Both the position numbers and the translations under genes were made by a program. Of a stretch of DNA of 64,000 nucleotides, positions 3,221 through 17,511 are shown piece by piece (position 1 is the stretch's first letter; each line of letters opens with the position of its first letter). Source of the DNA: an uncultured Acetatifactor sp. (GTDB lineage: Bacteria > Bacillota > Clostridia > Lachnospirales > Lachnospiraceae); the NCBI GenBank assembly GCA_904501885.1, contig CAJGCP010000003.1, forward strand, positions 5,182-69,181, read 5' to 3'. The notes below the pieces were generated by a model. That model did not search any database and was not told where the DNA came from. It was given only the letters and a program-made list of their open reading frames with translations.

Positions 3221-6039
3221 TGCAGGGAGTGATGATGGGAGATTTGTTTTTCAAATTGCTAAATATCAGTATTACTGCAGGGTGGCTTATTTTGGCGATT
3301 GTTTGCGTGCGCCTTCTTTTCAAAAAAATGCCCAAGTGGGTCAGTTGTATGTTGTGGGGAATAGTGGCAGTTCGGTTGATTTTCCCATTTTCTGTTGAAA
3401 GTGCTTTCAGCTTACAGCCCAGTGCCGAGCCCATCAAGTCCAGCACGATTGTTGAGGGGCAGGTATTAAACTATAGACCTTCGGTTAACAGCGGTCTGCC
3501 TGCGATAGATGACGCGGTGAACCCGGCATTGTTTGAGATGTTTGATTACCCGCCGATGCGCAGTGTCGCACCTTTGCAGATTGTTACCGCTGTTGCGGTA
3601 AATGTTTGGCTGTTGGGAATGATTTTGCTTGTTTTGTTTGCGGCCATCAGTGTGTTGCGCCTGCGCTTTCAGGTTCGAGAGTCGGTGCGTCATACGGCAA
3701 ACATTTTCCTATGTGACCGGGTGCAATCCCCTTTTATTTTAGGAAGCATCAGGCCGAGGGTGTACCTGCCGTCCAGCCTTTCTCAAGAGGAAATGGAGTA
3801 TGTCATTGCCCATGAGAAAGCACATTTACGCAGAAAGGATCACTGGTGGAAGCCGATAGGGTACCTGCTTTTGTGCGTATATTGGTTCCAGCCGCTTTGT
3901 TGGCTGGCATATATTTTGCTGTGCAAAGACATAGAATTAGCATGTGACGAAAAAGTGATTCGCCAAATGAGTATGGAAGACAAAAAAGAGTACTCACGGG
4001 TACTGTTGTCCTGCGCGACGCAAAGGCACCTGGTGGTAACTTGCCCTTTGGCGTTCGGTGAAGTGGGGGTAAAGGAAAGGGTGAAAACGGTTTTAAATTA
4101 TAAAAAGCCTGCGTTTTGGATTACGGTAGCGGCCATTGTGCTCTGTGTGGTGGTGGCGGTCTGTTTTTTGACCACTCCGGAAGAAAGTTCGGAGAAAGAC
4201 GCCTGGGTGGACGAATGGAATGCTGATGCTACCGATGCAGAAGGAGCGGAAGGAACCGGTGCGTGGGTGACCGAAGAAATCCACCTAGAAAAACGGGATG
4301 TGACCCACGATGGTGTGGAGGATTTTATTGTCACTTCCATGAAATACGACCCGTCCATCATTAATCCGAATCTGCCATTGAAAGAGAAAATTGCACAGCA
4401 AATCAGGTACGACGTGGTGAACGTAGCGATATATGACGGACAGGGAAGTTCCGATGAGTATAATGAGGAACAATTTCTTTGGTCACAGGATTATTCCTGG
4501 GTGCATGTGGGGAATGGTCAGGTAAGCGTCGTGCAGGCGGATGGCAAAGACTATCTGCTCACCAGTAATCTTTGGGCAGGACAGGGAACTGCAAGATGGA
4601 ATTATGAAGTTTTCTCGTTAAATTCTCTGGGTGAAAAAAATGTTGTGGAACAGCAGTCCATTGAATTTGATATAAATACAGAGGATGCTAGTGGAGAGCG
4701 CAGGACATTTAGAGAGTCCATAAACAAGTATATCAATGATGGCACCCTGATTGTAGCCTGTGATGTGGATCAGGATGTCGAGAATCAGTTTGTCAGTACC
4801 GATGAGGAAACATATGTACCGCTGGATTATTATGGTCAGGCACTTGTGAAGTTTGATGTATTGGAAGAAAACGAAACATCAGCAGAAGGATTTGTTACAA
4901 TAGATGTCTCTAAGATTGCGGAAATTGAGATAACAAACGGCAATACCGGTGTGCGGAAGAAACTTACACCGAAAGAGCAGTATTCGCAGGAGTATTATAA
5001 CTATAATGACTTGGTAAAACTGTATCGCCAGTTGGGACTTACCTCGCAATATGAGCCTAATTCCAGGGTTGGATATCAGTACTGTATGTGGTTGAAGGAT
5101 GCAGAAGGCAGTGTTTTGCAGACGGTTACTCCATACAAGGATGGGTTGACGGTGGATGGAATCTTCTACCAATACGATGATACGGATGAAAATGCAGCGG
5201 CATCTTTGCGGCTGATGGAATTTATGGAGTACATTTTTCAGCAGGATATATGTTCTTTACCGAAGGCACCTGACTATCTGTGGCCTACTGCCAGTCAAAC
5301 GGTATCTACCACTTTTGGGGAGCACGAAAATGGTGTTACGACGGAGCATATAAACATTGCCGGAGCGGAAGGAGATGATGTGATTGCCATAGCAGACGGC
5401 AAAATTCTGGAAACAGGCTACGAGTCAACGGTGGGTAGTTATATTATCTTGGATTTGGGAAATGGAGTGCATGCAAAATATGGGCATTTAGAGAAAGTAA
5501 TCGCGTACAAGGGGATGGAAGTGTCTCAAGGTCAAATGATTGGAATACTGGGTAAAACAGGCATGGCTACGGGACCTAATTTACTATTTGCTATTTATGT
5601 GAACGGGACTGCAGTGGATCCTTTGACTTATGAAGGCGGAATTGATGGAAATTGTGTTTTGGTGTTAACTGACCCGAATTGGGGCATCAAGCTAGCGGCA
5701 GAGAATGTTACATCAACCGGTGTAACAATCCACTGTGCCCAATCCGGCGGGGAGCCAACCGGCGAGTTGCGGACGGGAAGTTATTATGTGATTGAAAAAT
5801 ACGTAGAAGGAGTCTGGGAAAAAGTAGAATACTTGCCCCATGAACATGAGATTGCTTGGACCGCCGAGGCATGGACAATTCCCAAGGATGAAGTACGCCA
5901 ATGGGAAGTGAATTGGGAATGGTTATATGGGGAACTCCAGAAAGGTCGATACAGAATAGGTAAGGAAATTATGGATTTTAGAGGTACCGGCGATTATGAT
6001 CAAGCGCTGCATTATGCGGAGTTTGAGATAAAGAATTAA
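3217..6039 (+). CDS. BlaR1/MecR1-like M56 peptidase signal transducer with a large extracellular region containing a degenerate M23 (LytM-like) domain
   Basis: N-terminal TM helices. HExxH zinc motif HEKAH at nt 3811-3825 in the context VIAHEKAHLRRKDHWWK. M23-like block at ~5290-5630 (..YGHLEKV..GQMIGILGKTGMATGPNLLFAIYVNGTAVDP). Confidence 0.8.
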   Translation: MMQGVMMGDLFFKLLNISITAGWLILAIVCVRLLFKKMPKWVSCMLWGIVAVRLIFPFSVESAFSLQPSAEPIKSSTIVEGQVLNYRPSVNSGLPAIDDAVNPALFEMFDYPPMRSVAPLQIVTAVAVNVWLLGMILLVLFAAISVLRLRFQVRESVRHTANIFLCDRVQSPFILGSIRPRVYLPSSLSQEEMEYVIAHEKAHLRRKDHWWKPIGYLLLCVYWFQPLCWLAYILLCKDIELACDEKVIRQMSMEDKKEYSRVLLSCATQRHLVVTCPLAFGEVGVKERVKTVLNYKKPAFWITVAAIVLCVVVAVCFLTTPEESSEKDAWVDEWNADATDAEGAEGTGAWVTEEIHLEKRDVTHDGVEDFIVTSMKYDPSIINPNLPLKEKIAQQIRYDVVNVAIYDGQGSSDEYNEEQFLWSQDYSWVHVGNGQVSVVQADGKDYLLTSNLWAGQGTARWNYEVFSLNSLGEKNVVEQQSIEFDINTEDASGERRTFRESINKYINDGTLIVACDVDQDVENQFVSTDEETYVPLDYYGQALVKFDVLEENETSAEGFVTIDVSKIAEIEITNGNTGVRKKLTPKEQYSQEYYNYNDLVKLYRQLGLTSQYEPNSRVGYQYCMWLKDAEGSVLQTVTPYKDGLTVDGIFYQYDDTDENAAASLRLMEFMEYIFQQDICSLPKAPDYLWPTASQTVSTTFGEHENGVTTEHINIAGAEGDDVIAIADGKILETGYESTVGSYIILDLGNGVHAKYGHLEKVIAYKGMEVSQGQMIGILGKTGMATGPNLLFAIYVNGTAVDPLTYEGGIDGNCVLVLTDPNWGIKLAAENVTSTGVTIHCAQSGGEPTGELRTGSYYVIEKYVEGVWEKVEYLPHEHEIAWTAEAWTIPKDEVRQWEVNWEWLYGELQKGRYRIGKEIMDFRGTGDYDQALHYAEFEIKN

Positions 6040-6064
6040 ATAGTTCAATCCGGACAGAACGGTT

Positions 6065-6346
6065 GTGACACTGCCGTTTGTGAAAAAAGTCGCGAAAAAA
6101 AGTGACATTAAAAAAGTGACAGTAAAAAGTGACAGTAAAATAGTGACGGTAAAAACACAAGCACACTATGATTTGATTCTTTCATATATGAAGGATGATG
6201 TGTGGTATAAAGCAAGTGAATTGGTAGAAGTTTTGGGAGTTAGAGAAACGAGAACAAAAGCGTTGCTTAGAACACTTGTCGAAGAAGGCATGCTTATAGA
6301 CAATGGCATGATTAAAGGACGTAAATACAAAAGAAAACAGAGATAA
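6065..6346 (+). CDS. small winged-helix (wHTH) DNA-binding protein, start uncertain
   Basis: The C-terminal part ASELVEVLGVRETRTKALLRTLVEEGMLIDNG..GRKYKRK looks like a wHTH. The N-terminus is encoded by a DNA repeat. No clear RBS at GTG 6065. Confidence 0.4.
   Translation: MTLPFVKKVAKKSDIKKVTVKSDSKIVTVKTQAHYDLILSYMKDDVWYKASELVEVLGVRETRTKALLRTLVEEGMLIDNGMIKGRKYKRKQR
6085..6160. repeat. A-tract + GTGAC periodic repeat (~13-14 bp period, 4-5 copies)
   Basis: AAAAAAGTGACATT / AAAAAGTGACAGT / AAAAGTGACAGT / AAAATAGTGACGGT, with GTGAC at 6102, 6116, 6129 and 6143. Confidence 0.7.
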
Positions 6347-6375
6347 CAATTAATACGGAAGGCATAGAATCAAAG

Positions 6376-6421
6376 AACCACAAGAATAGTTCACAAGAGA
6401 CTATTTCTTGTGGTTTTTTTG
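6376..6421 (+). terminator. Rho-independent terminator
   Basis: AACCACAAGAATAGT / ACTATTTCTTGTGGTT stem followed by TTTTTT. Confidence 0.75.
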
Positions 6422-6467
6422 TGCCCAATGTGGTACACTATAACCAATTATTACCGATCCCTTAGGG

Positions 6468-8039
6468 ATGGAAAAAGAGAATAAATTATGGGAGGAGATG
6501 GCATTTGTGAAAAAGATATTTCCTGCTATTTTACTTATTATAAGTTTGATGTTAACAGGTTGTGGTTTGGGCCAGGGACGACAGAATGAGCCGGCCCCCA
6601 TATTGAACGAATATTTGACCCATTTGGATTTTTTGGCAACCCCGGTGCGTGAATACGGTGAAGGTACGGCGGTGGTGCAAATGGAAAAACATCTGATGGT
6701 GCGTATTATGTATCCGGAAGGTGAAATTCAGACGTTGAATGAAGAAATGGAATCTTGGATACAGGAAACAATTGCCTATTACGAGGAGGATTCCGGAACT
6801 GTTCCGGAGGGACAGGAAAATGCGGAATTGACGGCTGACTATAACAGTTATTTGGTGGATGATCAATGGGTAAGTGTAGAGATACGAGGTATCTATGAGA
6901 AACCTTTTAATGCCCATCCTGAGGATATTGTGATCACTTTCCATGCGAACTTGCTCACCGGTCAGTTGGTTAGCTTAGACGAGGTCCTACTGCCAGGCGG
7001 AAGAGAGCGCCTGCAAGAATTGGTGATTGAAGATGCGGGCATAGAGCCTGAAGTGGTGGACGAGTATCTGTTGGACAACTGGAAACTGACAGCTGATGGC
7101 ATTGAGATTATTCTGGAGCGCGGCGCTTATTTGCCTATGTCTGCAGGAACCGTTACATTGCCGTACACCTATGATGATTTGGAAGACATCCTTTCGTTAG
7201 AGGACGGGCAGAACGCTGGTCATGAAAATCCTTCAACGGACGAAGGGCAGGATTCCTTGTCGGGTGACCCCGATGGAAGTGACGTGGCAGATGACACGGC
7301 AGAGGGGACGAAAGATGGAAGCGTAGAGGACAACACCCATAGGCAACAGTCTAAATTGCCCGGGATGGAAAACAGTGAAAAAGATGGAGCATCTGCCCAG
7401 GACGGAAACGCCTCTAATGGACACGGTGAAGTGTCTAAATCGCGCATTGCTCTGACCTTTGACGATGGCCCCAGTAAATATACGGACCGATTGTTGGACG
7501 CCTTTGCAACCCACGGAGGCAAGGGAACATTTTTTGTGGTGGGTAACTTGGTGGACACCCGCGTGGACACTCTGAAACGAATGGTGAGTGAAGGTCATCA
7601 GGTGGCAGGACACAGTTGGGATCACAGACAGTTGACCAAGTTAAACAGACAGGATGTGACAAATCAAATTATGAATACTCGCGCCAAGATTTACGATGTG
7701 ACCGGCGTGGATGCAACCACCATAAGACCACCCTATGGCTCATATAATGATGAGGTCAAGGCGGTTTGTGTGGAAGTGGGTGTGGCCATGATTAACTGGT
7801 CCGTAGATACTTTGGATTGGAAGACGAAGAATGCAGACATGGTCTATGATGTGATTATGTCGGAGGCAAAGGATGGTGCCATTATCCTGTGCCACGACTT
7901 ATATGGTTCCACGGTGGAAGCAATGGAACGGGCCATTCCGGATTTGCTGGCAGCAGGCTATGAACTGGTGACTGTGGCCGAACTTTTAACCGGAGATGGA
8001 CAGGTCATTGAAGCAGGAAATGTGTATAACCGAAGATAA
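6468..8039 (+). CDS. PdaC-like lipoprotein: RsiV-like (DUF4163/DUF3298-type) domain + NodB polysaccharide/peptidoglycan deacetylase
   Basis: Lipobox LMLTGC. NodB motifs LTFDDGP, GHSWDH and PPYG. The true start is probably 6498-6507 (MAFVKK / GTG after GGGAGGAG). Confidence 0.8.
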   Translation: MEKENKLWEEMAFVKKIFPAILLIISLMLTGCGLGQGRQNEPAPILNEYLTHLDFLATPVREYGEGTAVVQMEKHLMVRIMYPEGEIQTLNEEMESWIQETIAYYEEDSGTVPEGQENAELTADYNSYLVDDQWVSVEIRGIYEKPFNAHPEDIVITFHANLLTGQLVSLDEVLLPGGRERLQELVIEDAGIEPEVVDEYLLDNWKLTADGIEIILERGAYLPMSAGTVTLPYTYDDLEDILSLEDGQNAGHENPSTDEGQDSLSGDPDGSDVADDTAEGTKDGSVEDNTHRQQSKLPGMENSEKDGASAQDGNASNGHGEVSKSRIALTFDDGPSKYTDRLLDAFATHGGKGTFFVVGNLVDTRVDTLKRMVSEGHQVAGHSWDHRQLTKLNRQDVTNQIMNTRAKIYDVTGVDATTIRPPYGSYNDEVKAVCVEVGVAMINWSVDTLDWKTKNADMVYDVIMSEAKDGAIILCHDLYGSTVEAMERAIPDLLAAGYELVTVAELLTGDGQVIEAGNVYNRR

Positions 8040-8113
8040 AAAACAATTGAGAAAGTACGTATTGCGAAATATAGCAATGTTATAAAAATTCCTTAATAAC
8101 CGGAGAATTTAAT

Positions 8114-9124
8114 ATGAGAATGAACAAGAAAAATGGTACGGTATCCAAACTGCTGGTTGGTTTGGCGGTGACCGTTGCCTTGGGATTTGGCGCCACCCGA
8201 ACGCCGGAGGATGGGCAAGAGACAGTTGTGCTGGAGAACTCGTTAGTAGCTGAAACGATAGAGAACAGTGCACAGGCTGAAACAGGAAATCAAGATGCAT
8301 CGGCAGTAGAGAGTCCATCCACATCAGACGCCCCCATATCCGAAATGGAAATCCATTTTATCGACGTGGAGCAGGGGGACGCCACTTTAATCAAAGTGGA
8401 CGACCACTATATGCTCATCGACGCAGGCGACAATAGCATGGGTACCAAGGTTCAATTATATTTGACCAAGCAGGGTGTGAAAAAATTGGACTATCTGATC
8501 TTGACCCACACCGACGCAGACCACATCGGCGGCGCGGATGTGGTGGTAACAAAATTTGATATTGACACCATCTTCATGGGGGATTATAAAAAGGATAATA
8601 AGACTTACAATGAACTGATAGAAGCGATGAAGTACAAATCCCTGACGCACTCTATCCCCGAGGTGGGAGCGCAGTATCAACTGGGGGATGCCACCTTTAC
8701 CATTTTGGGACCCAAGGAAGTTTATGACGACCCCAATAACACCAGCATTGCGTTGAAACTGACCCATGGTGAAAACACCTTCCTGTTCAGTGGCGATGCA
8801 GAAGCGGAGGCGGAGGCAGACATTCTGGACACGGGATTGGATTTGGATGTGGATGTGTATCATGCGGGACATCACGGAAGCAGTACATCTTCCACCACAG
8901 AATTTTTGGACGCCATGACACCGGAGTATGCGGTGATTAGCTGTAAGGAAGGAAATAGCTATGGTCACCCTCATGCGGAGACACTGATCAATTTCCGAGC
9001 CAAAGGAATACAGGTGTTCCGTACAGACGAACAGGGTAGTGTGGTGGCCTTCAGCGATGGAGAAAACATTACTTGGAACTGCGCACCCAGCGACAGCTGG
9101 CAGGCGGGTGAGCGAGGACAGTAA
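8114..9124 (+). CDS. secreted or membrane-anchored MBL-fold hydrolase (ComEC C-terminal domain-like)
   Basis: N-terminal hydrophobic segment. HFIDVEQGDATLI and LILTHTDADHIGG motifs typical of ComEC/Rec2-type metallo-beta-lactamase domains. Confidence 0.7.
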   Translation: MRMNKKNGTVSKLLVGLAVTVALGFGATRTPEDGQETVVLENSLVAETIENSAQAETGNQDASAVESPSTSDAPISEMEIHFIDVEQGDATLIKVDDHYMLIDAGDNSMGTKVQLYLTKQGVKKLDYLILTHTDADHIGGADVVVTKFDIDTIFMGDYKKDNKTYNELIEAMKYKSLTHSIPEVGAQYQLGDATFTILGPKEVYDDPNNTSIALKLTHGENTFLFSGDAEAEAEADILDTGLDLDVDVYHAGHHGSSTSSTTEFLDAMTPEYAVISCKEGNSYGHPHAETLINFRAKGIQVFRTDEQGSVVAFSDGENITWNCAPSDSWQAGERGQ

Positions 9125-9191
9125 TCATATTGAAACGGGCGAAAACGAGGACGGCAATGCAGCCGGTTCCGACGGAAGAGAGAGGTAAATA

Positions 9192-15424: not shown

Positions 15425-15490
15425 GCCAATCGTCGGAAAAATATTCGGCCAATCGTTGGGAAAATATTGCCAATAGCGGGAAACAGTGCT
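15425..15490. repeat. three tandem ~22-bp copies of GCCAATCGTCGGAAAAAT-like motif
   Basis: Copies start at 15425, 15448 and 15469. The same motif recurs at 20909 and 20932. Confidence 0.8.
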
Positions 15491-15495
15491 ATACT
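15467..15495 (+). promoter_or_regulatory. sigma-A-type promoter TTGCCA-17-TATACT
   Basis: -35 at 15467-15472 and -10 at 15490-15495 with an exact 17-nt spacer. Confidence 0.55.
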
Positions 15496-15500
15496 GATAT

Positions 15501-15710
15501 CGCCAAACTAACTTAAAAATGTGTGAAATTGGGTGTATTTTTCTATTTATGGGAGAACTACGCTTTTTTGTGTATGCAGTGGATGAATTTGATAAAAACG
15601 CAAATTCTATCACTGTGTATACGGGTACGCCCCATTTCACATGAGTTAGTTTGGCGACTATCGGAGTTTGCGTTTTTTATGCGATCACTTCGGTGGTCGC
15701 ATTTTTTATT
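15501..15710 (+). ncRNA. candidate ~210-nt structured RNA / cis-regulatory leader (class not recognised)
   Basis: The 5' segment CGCCAAACTAACT (15501-15513) is perfectly complementary to AGTTAGTTTGGCG (15644-15656). A second imperfect helix follows (ATGTGTGAAATTGGG / CCCATTTCACAT). The element ends in a UUCG-loop terminator. Confidence 0.4.
15679..15710 (+). terminator. Rho-independent terminator with UUCG tetraloop
   Basis: ATGCGATCAC-TTCG-GTGGTCGCAT (one G-U pair), then TTTTTTA. Confidence 0.75.
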
Positions 15711-15744
15711 TATAAAACGGTTGCAATATCAATGAACGATAGAG

Positions 15745-17511
15745 GTGAAACACTTGATTATAAAGCATAATTTGCTGAAAAAACAAAAAGCAAGAAAAAC
15801 GTCCTCGCTGGTGGATATAGATATATATCATTGGGCGGAGGAACTCTACGACGAACTGGAGAAACAGGGTGTGATTCAGCGCATGAAGGATACTAACCAA
15901 TTAGGGGTTATCCGGGTGGCGAAGCATCTGACAAAGAGCCGGTACGACTACATGCTTTTGCAGTTGTATTTTCACCAACTGATACGTAAAGATACCGCAC
16001 TACAGTCTTCTCTGGAATATACCTACGGGAGTTATGTCAGGGCATCTGAGTTTCATCGTGAACTGGATTATATAGACAAACAGAAAATAACGGTTGGTGA
16101 TTTACTTCAAATACTAACCATTTCATACAATATAGGACATTTTTATAACACCTTTGTATCCTCGAAGGCGGCAGTCACGTTCGCCGGAATAAATCCGGAT
16201 TTCAAGCGGACGATAGTAGAGTCCTTTGACAGAACGGACGGACAAAGTCTGGCGCAACATATACTGGAAGAAAAGAGTTATCTGCGCTACCATTTGCTGA
16301 ATTCGCTGTTTATTTTAGAACGCTGTGACCAAAGTAAGACTTCCGTTCGACTGGCACAGGATTTGATTTATACATATGTAAATGAGAAGAGCCTGGCCCC
16401 TGATAGCAAACTTCGTTATGTGTTGAGGCTATATAGAAATGTTCGCAACATTGCATTTCTATCCTATGACTTTCAAATCGCACCGACGCCGATTACCATC
16501 GACTTGTGCGATTCACAATCTATTTTGCTGTTGTTTCATGAATTGTTATCCATATACAACGATAACAGCTCCACGAGGCGGTTGCTGAATTCCATGAACA
16601 AGCTTCTTAATGATACGGTATATAACGAGGAATCTAACACCATTTGTTATCAAATGATCACGGATAGAATGGTGAGCGAACTAAGACAGGTTTCCACGTG
16701 GGATAAAGATATCTACTACTCGATGATGGGAAGCAAGGAAAGCATCTTTAACCGTGATTATGCTCAAAGCAGAAGATATGTATCGGAGGGATTTCTAAAG
16801 TTAACATTCCGGAAAGAACACAGGGAGATTTCTCGGGCACTGTTTTCCAGATTGAATCACATGCAGTATGTTCGCGTGGGATACTATGACCGCAATAGCG
16901 GGGAGCAGACGATTGTAGTATCGCTGAGCAATCAGTGCAAGAAAAAAACACAGGTTGCCTTTCGAGTGTTAGGAGTTGTTACGAACCTATTGCGTACGGT
17001 TCCGGACATTATGAATAATGACCCTCGGTATTTATTGACAACGAAGTTTTACCTGTTTTATCTATGCGGTCAACGACAGATACACATTAAGCCGACCGTT
17101 AGTTCGCAGAATTGCGTGCTATGCACTAAGGGTAAGTCTCAACGGATTCTGTCAATCAATAAAGTGCTCAGGGAAAACGAGGGCGACGAAGACCAGATTC
17201 ACGAGGTGGAGCACTTGCGTTGGGTACTGCAAAAAGATACGAAAAATGATGTATGCATCACCCTTCCGTCCAGTATTTTGGTTTGTGGGAATGGCAATGA
17301 AGACAAAACCTTTTGCGAGTTTGACGGCATGATTATCTATCCAAACAGGACGTCTAACCAGACTGTTTTCTTGGAAGCCAAAAACACCAAGGTAAAACCC
17401 ACATATGGAAAGAAATGTCTGATAGACAAACTGCGGAAATTGAACATCCAATTTGAGGAAGAAGATATAGAAATAAATAAAAAAGACGCAATGCTTTTCT
17501 GGTCTGTGTAG
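15745..17511 (+). CDS. orphan 588-aa cytoplasmic protein: degenerate HD-like N-terminal region + C-terminal PD-(D/E)xK nuclease-like motif
   Basis: No TM or signal peptide. FDGMIIYP..(16 aa)..VFLEAKN gives D527 (nt 17323-25), E544 (17374-76) and K546 (17380-82). The start may instead be TTG 15754, 6 nt after GAGGTG. Confidence 0.55.
   Translation: MKHLIIKHNLLKKQKARKTSSLVDIDIYHWAEELYDELEKQGVIQRMKDTNQLGVIRVAKHLTKSRYDYMLLQLYFHQLIRKDTALQSSLEYTYGSYVRASEFHRELDYIDKQKITVGDLLQILTISYNIGHFYNTFVSSKAAVTFAGINPDFKRTIVESFDRTDGQSLAQHILEEKSYLRYHLLNSLFILERCDQSKTSVRLAQDLIYTYVNEKSLAPDSKLRYVLRLYRNVRNIAFLSYDFQIAPTPITIDLCDSQSILLLFHELLSIYNDNSSTRRLLNSMNKLLNDTVYNEESNTICYQMITDRMVSELRQVSTWDKDIYYSMMGSKESIFNRDYAQSRRYVSEGFLKLTFRKEHREISRALFSRLNHMQYVRVGYYDRNSGEQTIVVSLSNQCKKKTQVAFRVLGVVTNLLRTVPDIMNNDPRYLLTTKFYLFYLCGQRQIHIKPTVSSQNCVLCTKGKSQRILSINKVLRENEGDEDQIHEVEHLRWVLQKDTKNDVCITLPSSILVCGNGNEDKTFCEFDGMIIYPNRTSNQTVFLEAKNTKVKPTYGKKCLIDKLRKLNIQFEEEDIEINKKDAMLFWSV

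Follow-up and report, generated by a model that had tools for sequence, protein, structure and literature searches.

The 64,000-nucleotide stretch of DNA analysed here (the window) comes from contig CAJGCP010000003.1 of an uncultured Acetatifactor sp., and at 15754..17511 on the + strand it contains a gene whose product is probably a new anti-phage nuclease. The N-terminal part of the protein is related to the SAMHD1/dGTPase-type HD deoxynucleoside triphosphate (dNTP) hydrolases, with the metal ligands replaced, and the C-terminal part carries the motif of a putative PD-(D/E)xK nuclease. We refer to the protein as the HD-nuclease. It belongs to a previously undescribed family, unnamed but widespread. 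The N-terminal homology, the loss of the metal ligands, the invariance of the C-terminal motif, the purifying selection on the gene and the genomic association of the family are established by the comparisons described below. We give about an even chance to the reading that the protein is a defence nuclease in which a pseudo-HD domain acts as sensor or regulator and a C-terminal PD-(D/E)xK-type domain acts as effector.

The pseudo-HD domain (residues ~25–340; 15817..16764, + strand) is predicted to be all-helical. An AlphaFold2 model made from 25 homologues had a predicted local distance difference test score (pLDDT) of 88 and a predicted template modelling score (pTM) of 0.85. When this model was compared with the Protein Data Bank (PDB) using Foldseek, the only credible matches were the SAMHD1 structures 9ec2_B and 6u6y_A, with a probability of 1.00, E = 5e-3 and 1.4e-2 respectively, and a target TM-score of 0.47; the remaining matches were noise. 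A profile of the most distant branch of the family matched SAMHD1-type HD proteins only (9mr6_A at E = 3e-6, 2q14_A at 0.005 and 25 SAMHD1 sequences at ~0.05). The profile of the whole family gave a single PDB match, the dNTPase EF1143 (E = 0.28), at the RL..I.QLG...R(F/Y) segment, and pairwise tblastn of PDB HD fragments against a family member gave E = 3e-7. Judged by these profiles and by the model, the N-terminal ~340 residues are homologous to SAMHD1-type HD dNTPases, and the resemblance is not due to chance. A preliminary description of this DNA, made without database searches, had pointed out a parallel with the SAMHD1/dGTPase HD core and had proposed modelling and Foldseek as a check on it; the parallel reflects real homology.

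Alignment to SAMHD1 (7ujn_A, residues 142–169) places the motif block R46-x5-Q52-L53-G54...R66-Y-D-Y69 (15874..15963, + strand) on R143...Q149-L150-G151...R164-F-E-H167. Residues Q52, L53, G54 and R66 correspond to SAMHD1 Q149, L150, G151 and R164 respectively, and Y69 corresponds to H167. At 16126..16140 (+ strand), Y128-N129-I-G131-H132 takes the place of H-D-I-G-H, the family sequence 'LLtNiGH' being aligned to 'LLHDIGH' of 2q14_A. The underlying segments IQRMKDTNQLG (residues 44–54), TKSRYDYMLLQ (63–73) and LTISYNIGHFYNTF (124–137) were found at the residues given in the preliminary description, as were EFDG (525–528) and EAKN (544–547) of the C-terminal domain.

In SAMHD1 the catalytic metal is bound by H167, H206, D207 and D311, and the dNTP pocket is lined by Q149, L150, R164 and H210. 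Conservation was counted over 199 full-length family members. The position of His167 is occupied by Tyr (Y69) in 197 of them; that of His206 (residue 128) by Y, S, T, N or C, and in no member by His; and that of Asp207 by Asn (N129) in 191 and never by Asp. The His–Asp metal dyad has been lost, and the substitution of ligands noticed earlier in the window protein (K/Y and Y-N) has its counterpart in every member. The distal His (H132) is retained in 194/199, and together with Q52 (178/199), L53 (194/199), G54 (198/199) and R66 (192/199) it belongs to a set of positions that are 89–99% kept. Residues T136, R234 and D242 are invariant (199/199).

No member carries the ligand set H...HD...D of active HD enzymes. 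The Pfam HD family (PF01966) gave no match to the window protein even at E ≤ 10, and was not among the families listed for 64 members. The protein fails the defining catalytic feature of the HD phosphohydrolases and should not be classified among them. As the His167 and His206-Asp207 positions have been replaced, dNTP hydrolysis and depletion of the dNTP pool are not expected. The loss of the metal ligands, together with the retention and invariance of pocket residues, instead suggests an enzyme that has turned into a binding module. In the divergent branch, the sequence GAHHTRYEY is found where the window branch has KKSRYDY, and ligand loss is therefore ancestral to the whole family, with decay having gone further in the window branch.

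The segment R234...D242 (16444..16470, + strand) is a tentative equivalent of D-(K/R)-x-D-Y-x-x-R-D, which we take to be a motif of HD dNTPases. R234 would then take the place of the fourth metal ligand and D242 that of SAMHD1 D319. The mapping is tentative: it comes from an alignment of a second domain to 2q14_A that is co-linear but does not reach significance. A search for full-length bacterial HD dNTPases seeded with the 2q14 fragment returned only fragments of ≤133 residues.

The C-terminal residues ~480–588 (17182..17508, + strand) form a putative PD-(D/E)xK nuclease domain, according to predicted secondary structure and weak Pfam matches. The predicted order of elements is helix (482–497), strand, strand, strand (528–531), strand (540–544), helix (552–565), strand and strand, which fits an alpha-beta-beta-beta-alpha-beta core. 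Residue E487 (17203..17205, + strand) is acidic, lies in the first helix of this putative core and is found in 199/199 members. In E525-F-D527-G528 (17317..17328, + strand), D527 is at the start of strand 528–531 and is likewise invariant (199/199), with E525 and G528 each kept in 197/199. The (D/E)xK motif, E544-A-K546-N547 (17374..17385, + strand), lies at the end of strand 540–544, with E544 present in 199/199 members and K546 in 198/199. The same set, E487...D527...E544-x-K546, is kept in the ~20%-identical branch. The spacing D527-x16-E544-x-K546 read in the preliminary description is correct, and the triad that it named is conserved among homologues.

When the C-terminal fragments of 50 members were compared in isolation with Pfam, only sub-threshold matches were obtained. 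The three most recurrent families were HamA (four matches), Card1_endonuc (two) and NERD (two), and RE_XamI, PDDEXK_9 and YhcG_C were each matched once; these six, which we take to be PD-(D/E)xK families, are among the 25 weak Pfam matches listed. The best HamA match, also below threshold, had E = 0.0018 and came from a single query. On motif and predicted topology, a PD-(D/E)xK fold is probable for this domain. Of the PD-(D/E)xK signature claimed earlier, the invariant motif and a fitting topology stand, but structure searches did not confirm the fold.

Between these two parts lies a middle alpha/beta domain (residues ~345–478; 16777..17178, + strand) with the sequences GYYDR and C457-x2-C460. 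A separate model of residues 341–588 had a pLDDT of 95, and the middle domain gave no significant Foldseek match. Cysteines C194, C301, C457 and C460 (nt 16324–16326, 16645–16647, 17113–17115 and 17122–17124) are kept in ~70–80% of members and are absent from the divergent branch. The four may form a structural zinc site that bridges the HD-like domain and the middle domain.

The open reading frame (ORF) listed in the preliminary description, 15745..17511 on the + strand, is present; it opens at GTG and encodes 588 amino acids, and its numbering is used for residues throughout. The TTG at 15754, which gives 585 amino acids, is the likelier start. A ribosome-binding site read from the sequence (AGAGGTG, 15741..15747, + strand) is placed 6 nt before this TTG, the 96%-identical homologue P0001 is also 585 residues long, and the shorter reading fits the N-termini of other homologues. 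The product is predicted to be a cytoplasmic protein of ~68 kDa, with an isoelectric point (pI) of 8.9. As had been noted, it has no transmembrane helix or signal peptide; the maximum Kyte–Doolittle value of any 19-mer is 1.16 and the N-terminus is basic. Comparison of the window copy with that in a near-identical locus (L009) gave a synonymous divergence (dS) of 0.24 and a ratio of nonsynonymous to synonymous divergence (dN/dS) of 0.06. The gene is therefore under strong purifying selection, and its solitary copy in the window must be functional.

The gene had also been described as A+T-richer than its neighbours. This difference is marginal: its GC content of 41.7% (ORF mean 44.4 ± 3.4%) lies at the 22nd percentile among windows of the same size, and GC content at third codon positions is slightly above the mean. 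Composition says nothing about foreign origin. Recent horizontal acquisition, as judged by composition, was rejected, since GC content is within one standard deviation of the ORF mean.

The protein is not the orphan that it had been taken for. A word-indexed search found 389 homologues at E ≤ 1e-3, many of them full-length with 45–62% identity and all labelled 'hypothetical', and when 1.84 billion cluster representatives were searched exhaustively, 319 clusters at 50% identity were matched, 85 of them with E < 1e-30. Nearly all members are 570–620 residues long (about 585) and have one architecture, and a divergent branch (P0213–P0269) with ~20% identity shares the same length and motifs. The family occurs patchily in Clostridia, Bacilli, Negativicutes, Desulfobulbaceae and Succinivibrio. 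A survey of 185,579 species, each represented by one genome, yielded 33 loci, which belong to Clostridia, Rummeliibacillus, Veillonella, Erysipelotrichales, Desulfobulbaceae and Succinivibrio, with ~45–50% identity across phyla. Such a rare and patchy distribution over phyla, at this level of sequence identity, indicates that the family moves horizontally.

The window protein matched no model in Pfam, NCBIfam or PADLOC. A scan of 64 members against the same three collections gave no consistent family, and the PADLOC matches were scattered, single-member and attributable to chance. Nothing was found in a single-protein sequence search of the PDB or in a Foldseek search of viral structures (BFVD), and we found no published description of the family in the literature. 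The protein thus remains outside any named system, as the preliminary description had left it, and no characterised housekeeping family in Pfam, NCBIfam, PADLOC or the PDB claims it.

The genomic neighbourhoods of family members were compared. Upstream sequence was present for 27 loci, and in 11 of these (~40%) a restriction or helicase gene bearing a superfamily 2 (SF2) translocase lies directly upstream on the same strand. Among 124 neighbouring ORFs within three genes at 25 loci, the commonest domains were ResIII (10) and Eco57I (6); PADLOC identified six Type IIG restriction endonuclease-methyltransferases and three Type I restriction endonucleases, and integrases, resolvases and D5 primases were also present. 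These values are raw counts. Other copies were found in an integrative and conjugative element, in integrase/primase elements and at a prophage end beside serine recombinases, and four members lie on IMG/VR contigs. Gene neighbourhoods thus place the family as clearly defence-linked, patchy, and carried on mobile elements or beside restriction-modification (RM) genes, and the mobile or defence association suggested earlier is borne out. The likeness to single-gene systems drawn in the preliminary description has to be qualified, in view of the copies directly behind an SF2-translocase-bearing gene and of a distant-branch member that closes a TerB-ATPase-helicase operon.

Type I RM genes lie directly upstream in L004, L012, L015 and L128. 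The last of these (L128 1–13260, around member P0010) is a dense defence island comprising AAA_23/DUF2326, helix-turn-helix (HTH), Type I HsdM-S-R, HD-nuclease, DUF5655 and RE_NgoFVII/PLD-helicase-DUF3427 genes. The distant-branch operon is in L131 (1200–9809), as cargo of a Tn7-like element (TniQ/TnsD), and consists of TerB_N/TerB/TerB_C (1042 residues), a BrxC/BrxD-like ATPase, a DEAD/ResIII helicase and, last, the divergent HD-nuclease P0242. By its gene content, this four-gene operon looks like a multi-gene defence system with a member of the HD-nuclease family as its nuclease.

A Type IIG-like RM module immediately precedes the HD-nuclease gene, in the same orientation, in L002, L006, L014, L018, L023, L026 and L029. 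In L035 and L037 it is encoded on the opposite strand, and L028, L030 and L031 retain remnants of it. It consists of an HTH controller, a 344-residue protein and a 1332–1579-residue fusion of ResIII, Eco57I and target recognition domains. The 344-residue protein has no Pfam domain and matches the REBASE-derived PADLOC MTase_II model PDLC03390 at E = 3e-121. The fusion in L006 has a T5orf172/GIY-YIG-like N-terminus, and the RM-like module, which in L023 lies at 3450–9147, is widespread, being also seen at ~80 metagenome loci (L047–L126).

The small protein, the big fusion and the HD-nuclease co-diverge, with identities of 49%, 48% and 56% between L006 and the other loci. The association with the RM module is therefore old, and the linkage survives inversions. 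Some 40 loci were collected using the 344-residue gene as seed and with at least 2 kb of sequence after the big gene, and only L048 and L083 among them carry the HD-nuclease. The RM system therefore does not need the HD-nuclease, and on the same count we rejected the idea that it is a third subunit which the Type IIG-like system requires. The slot downstream of the big gene apparently holds variable cargo, the HD-nuclease being there in ~5% of loci.

This arrangement bears on a different reading, in which the protein is an accessory nuclease that acts with an SF2 translocase, either in the manner of HamA and HamB or as an RM guardian of the PrrC/RloC type. The neighbouring protein would deliver, restrain or activate the nuclease, and solitary copies would be remnants, or would depend on a helicase from another locus. 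The same-strand position directly after helicase-bearing genes, the co-divergence of the trio down to 48–56% identity, the recurrence of HamA as the most frequent weak match of C-terminal fragments, and the fourth place of the distant-branch member in its operon all agree with this reading. It nevertheless seems unlikely, as the gene is present in so few of the RM loci that have space for it after the big gene, its partners come from systems of three unrelated types, and many solitary copies are intact. The window copy is itself under strong purifying selection, and no homolog of the RM partners was found within the 64-kb window.

In the reading that we prefer, the N-terminal domain would be a pseudoenzyme derived from a SAMHD1/dGTPase-type dNTP triphosphohydrolase, in which the metal site has gone and the pocket residues have been kept. 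We infer ligand binding, nuclease activity, a trigger and an anti-phage phenotype, as follows. The HD pocket would still bind a nucleotide or a nucleic-acid end, without hydrolysis, and would serve as a sensor or regulatory module; the likeliest ligands would be (d)NTPs, modified dNTPs or a nucleic-acid end. The C-terminal ~110 residues, with their E...D...ExK tetrad, would be the effector and would cut DNA or possibly RNA, and the middle domain would couple the sensor to the nuclease. Such a protein could work alone, as in the window, or as a second line of defence encoded just downstream of helicase-bearing restriction systems, the position that the family prefers.

A more specific proposal, which we regard as possible but rather doubtful, is that the family is a new class of immune effector, in which a dead descendant of a SAMHD1/dGTPase acts as a nucleotide sensor that licenses the fused PD-(D/E)xK nuclease. 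The sensor might read a perturbation of the dNTP pool, phage-specific modified dNTPs or another nucleotide signal. If this is true, a single polypeptide would unite two antiviral strategies of ancient origin, the depletion of dNTPs and the cleavage of nucleic acids, and could step in once the restriction systems encoded nearby have been evaded.

Several results weigh against a defence nuclease of this kind. Foldseek comparison of residues 341–588 with the PDB gave no nuclease at E < 0.1, a C-terminal profile matched nothing among PDB sequences, and hhalign gave no significant alignment of that profile to either a Uma2 protein or the N-terminal nuclease domain of an HsdR, both taken from loci collected here (in the non-significant HsdR comparison, 'lEAKN' was aligned with 'IELKN'). 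The pocket mapping beyond SAMHD1 Q149, L150, R164, H167, H206, D207 and H210 comes from a non-significant alignment. No PADLOC model (PADLOC-DB v2.0.0) recognises the window protein or, consistently, the 64 members scanned, and no match was obtained by tblastn in sequenced plasmids or phages. The composition of the gene is not anomalous, and its neighbours in the window, an ABC transporter upstream and a BspA-LRR/dockerin protein downstream, are not defence genes.

The preferred reading and its rivals overlap in part and are not fully exclusive. One rival, to which we give little weight, is a Type IV-like restriction endonuclease, in which the pseudo-HD pocket flips out a modified or damaged base or binds a DNA end and the nuclease then cuts, with neither a soluble ligand nor abortive infection. 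A location beside Type I and Type IIG-like RM systems is typical of Type IV enzymes, and the protein would combine an N-terminal reader with a C-terminal PD-(D/E)xK motif; one of the two SAMHD1 structures matched by the model, 6u6y, is an oligonucleotide-bound complex, and the protein is basic. Domain scans, however, did not detect modified-base reader domains (SRA, EVE, YTH, DUF262-type and others), and the conserved residues map to the dNTP pocket, including the phosphate-binding Arg, which would suit a free nucleotide better than a base in a duplex.

A non-immune nuclease for DNA processing on mobile elements or the chromosome (recombination, repair or element maintenance), linked to RM genes only by shared carriage on integrative elements, is very improbable: integrative elements with recombinase, primase or conjugation genes make up several of the loci, the window copy lies among ordinary metabolic and surface-protein genes and no defence model matches, but the distribution is very sparse and patchy, the gene is specifically beside RM or helicase genes and not recombinases, and no conserved partner typical of repair pathways accompanies it.

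In the window the gene is solitary and follows an operon for a sugar-type ABC transporter. A surface protein of 1091 residues with BspA-type leucine-rich repeats (LRR), Big_3 and dockerin domains (17547–20822) starts 36 nt after the HD-nuclease stop codon, with no predicted terminator between them, and the same gene order is found in L009. The two genes may be co-transcribed, which would be an odd partnership for a defence gene.

Upstream of the gene on the + strand, a promoter-like sequence (TTGCCA-17 nt-TATACT with a TG extension, 15467..15495), identified by consensus match only, precedes a 156-nt hairpin (15501–15656) and a terminator-like stem with a T-run (15679–15712), the whole RNA element spanning 15501..15712. 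The hairpin corresponds to the structured RNA mentioned in the preliminary description. It is near-perfect, with a minimum free energy of −87 kcal/mol for 15497–15715 (z = −10.2), and is present as a single copy in the window. Rfam scans of the upstream RNA gave no family at the gathering score, and chance matches to microRNA-like long hairpins at a permissive threshold. Outside the window the element occurs only in the near-identical locus L009, and the other members lack it upstream; a family-specific leader or riboswitch was therefore rejected. The promoter-like site could drive both hairpin and gene, and the element could be a small RNA, an attenuator or a relic inverted repeat.

Pairs of an 18-nt direct-repeat motif, GCCAATCGTCGGAAAAAT, whose presence at both flanks had been reported before, bracket a 5.5-kb block that comprises the hairpin together with the HD-nuclease and LRR/dockerin genes. 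The left pair (15425..15465, + strand) has copies at 15425 and 15448, and the right pair (20909..20949, + strand) at 20909 and 20932. All 2+2 copies are in the same orientation, with 23 nt between starts in each pair, and 0.1 matches would be expected by chance. L009 has a single copy at its left site. No empty site was found for the block, and an exact-sequence look-up of the upstream lipoprotein gave nothing on record. The repeats may be att-like sequences or insertion scars, or operator sites. Directly to the right of the block, on the − strand, a DUF3990 protein gene (21586–22452) overlaps an ORF with a C-terminal HTH_3 domain (20949–21773); this pair (20949–22452) is a recurrent Firmicute gene pair.

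Among known nucleases, PrrC and RloC are anticodon nucleases encoded in Type I RM loci, with a suicide or back-up role, and PrrC is regulated by GTP and dTTP. Their likeness to the HD-nuclease is that of a back-up nuclease encoded beside Type I RM genes. The domains themselves are unrelated, as the N-terminal domain of PrrC is ABC-ATPase-like and its nuclease domain is of another kind; no sequence similarity emerged, though the comparison was not itself put to a test. In Hachiman, according to PMC11914072, a PD-(D/E)xK-type effector, HamA (DUF1837), is likewise encoded beside an SF2 helicase, HamB. HamA was matched weakly, below significance, by 4 of the 50 C-terminal fragments, but it has no HD-like domain. 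The adjacent HamB is obligatory in Hachiman, whereas the partners of the HD-nuclease family are RM translocases of several types, which are dispensable and are absent from many loci, including the window. The combination that identifies Hachiman, a DUF1837 HamA domain with an adjacent HamB, was not found.

Upx (PMC13099982), a single-protein defence nuclease, and the ligand-gated CARF-nuclease effectors Card1/Can2 share with the family the concept of a single polypeptide with a C-terminal PD-(D/E)xK core and N-terminal or middle regulatory domains. Upx, however, has 1272 residues and a different N-terminal domain, with no detectable relationship in sequence or fold, and it was not recovered in our PDB searches; in Card1/Can2 the sensor is a CARF domain in place of the pseudo-HD domain, although Card1_endonuc was among the weak Pfam matches. 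Thirteen PD-(D/E)xK systems are counted among the 154 in DefenseFinder, eight of them single-gene (PMC13099982). Candidate defence nucleases are numerous. The family is a candidate for single-polypeptide sensor-nuclease defence with a novel pseudo-HD sensor, a type of sensor not described before. If it does sense nucleotides, it would add a new type of sensor to the single-protein sensor-effector defences, and would be an example of an immune enzyme evolving into an immune receptor. If nucleotide sensing is wrong, the family would still merit an entry in Pfam or DefenseFinder as a conserved, mobile, RM-linked putative nuclease.

The closest relatives are the SAMHD1 and bacterial dGTPase-type HD dNTPases (human SAMHD1, EF1143 (2o6i), 2q14 and 9mr6), an immunity-linked lineage, with which the family shares the R-x5-QLG...R-(F/Y)-(E/D) and x-x-I-G-H blocks and the fold. 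It differs from them in the replacement of the metal ligands, in the additional middle and C-terminal nuclease-motif domains and in the lack of a PF01966 match. In bacterial immunity, enzymes of this type are not known other than as active dGTPases, by which phages are starved of dNTPs. A 2026 review (PMC13276650), which cites the anti-phage dGTPases of Tal et al. 2022, lists active dGTPases as the only SAMHD1-like bacterial defence and considers that bacteria may have further SAMHD1-like proteins, of variant function, still to be identified. The family described here, with ~320 clusters at 50% identity and invisible to Pfam, NCBIfam and PADLOC, is a concrete candidate for such a variant SAMHD1-like protein.

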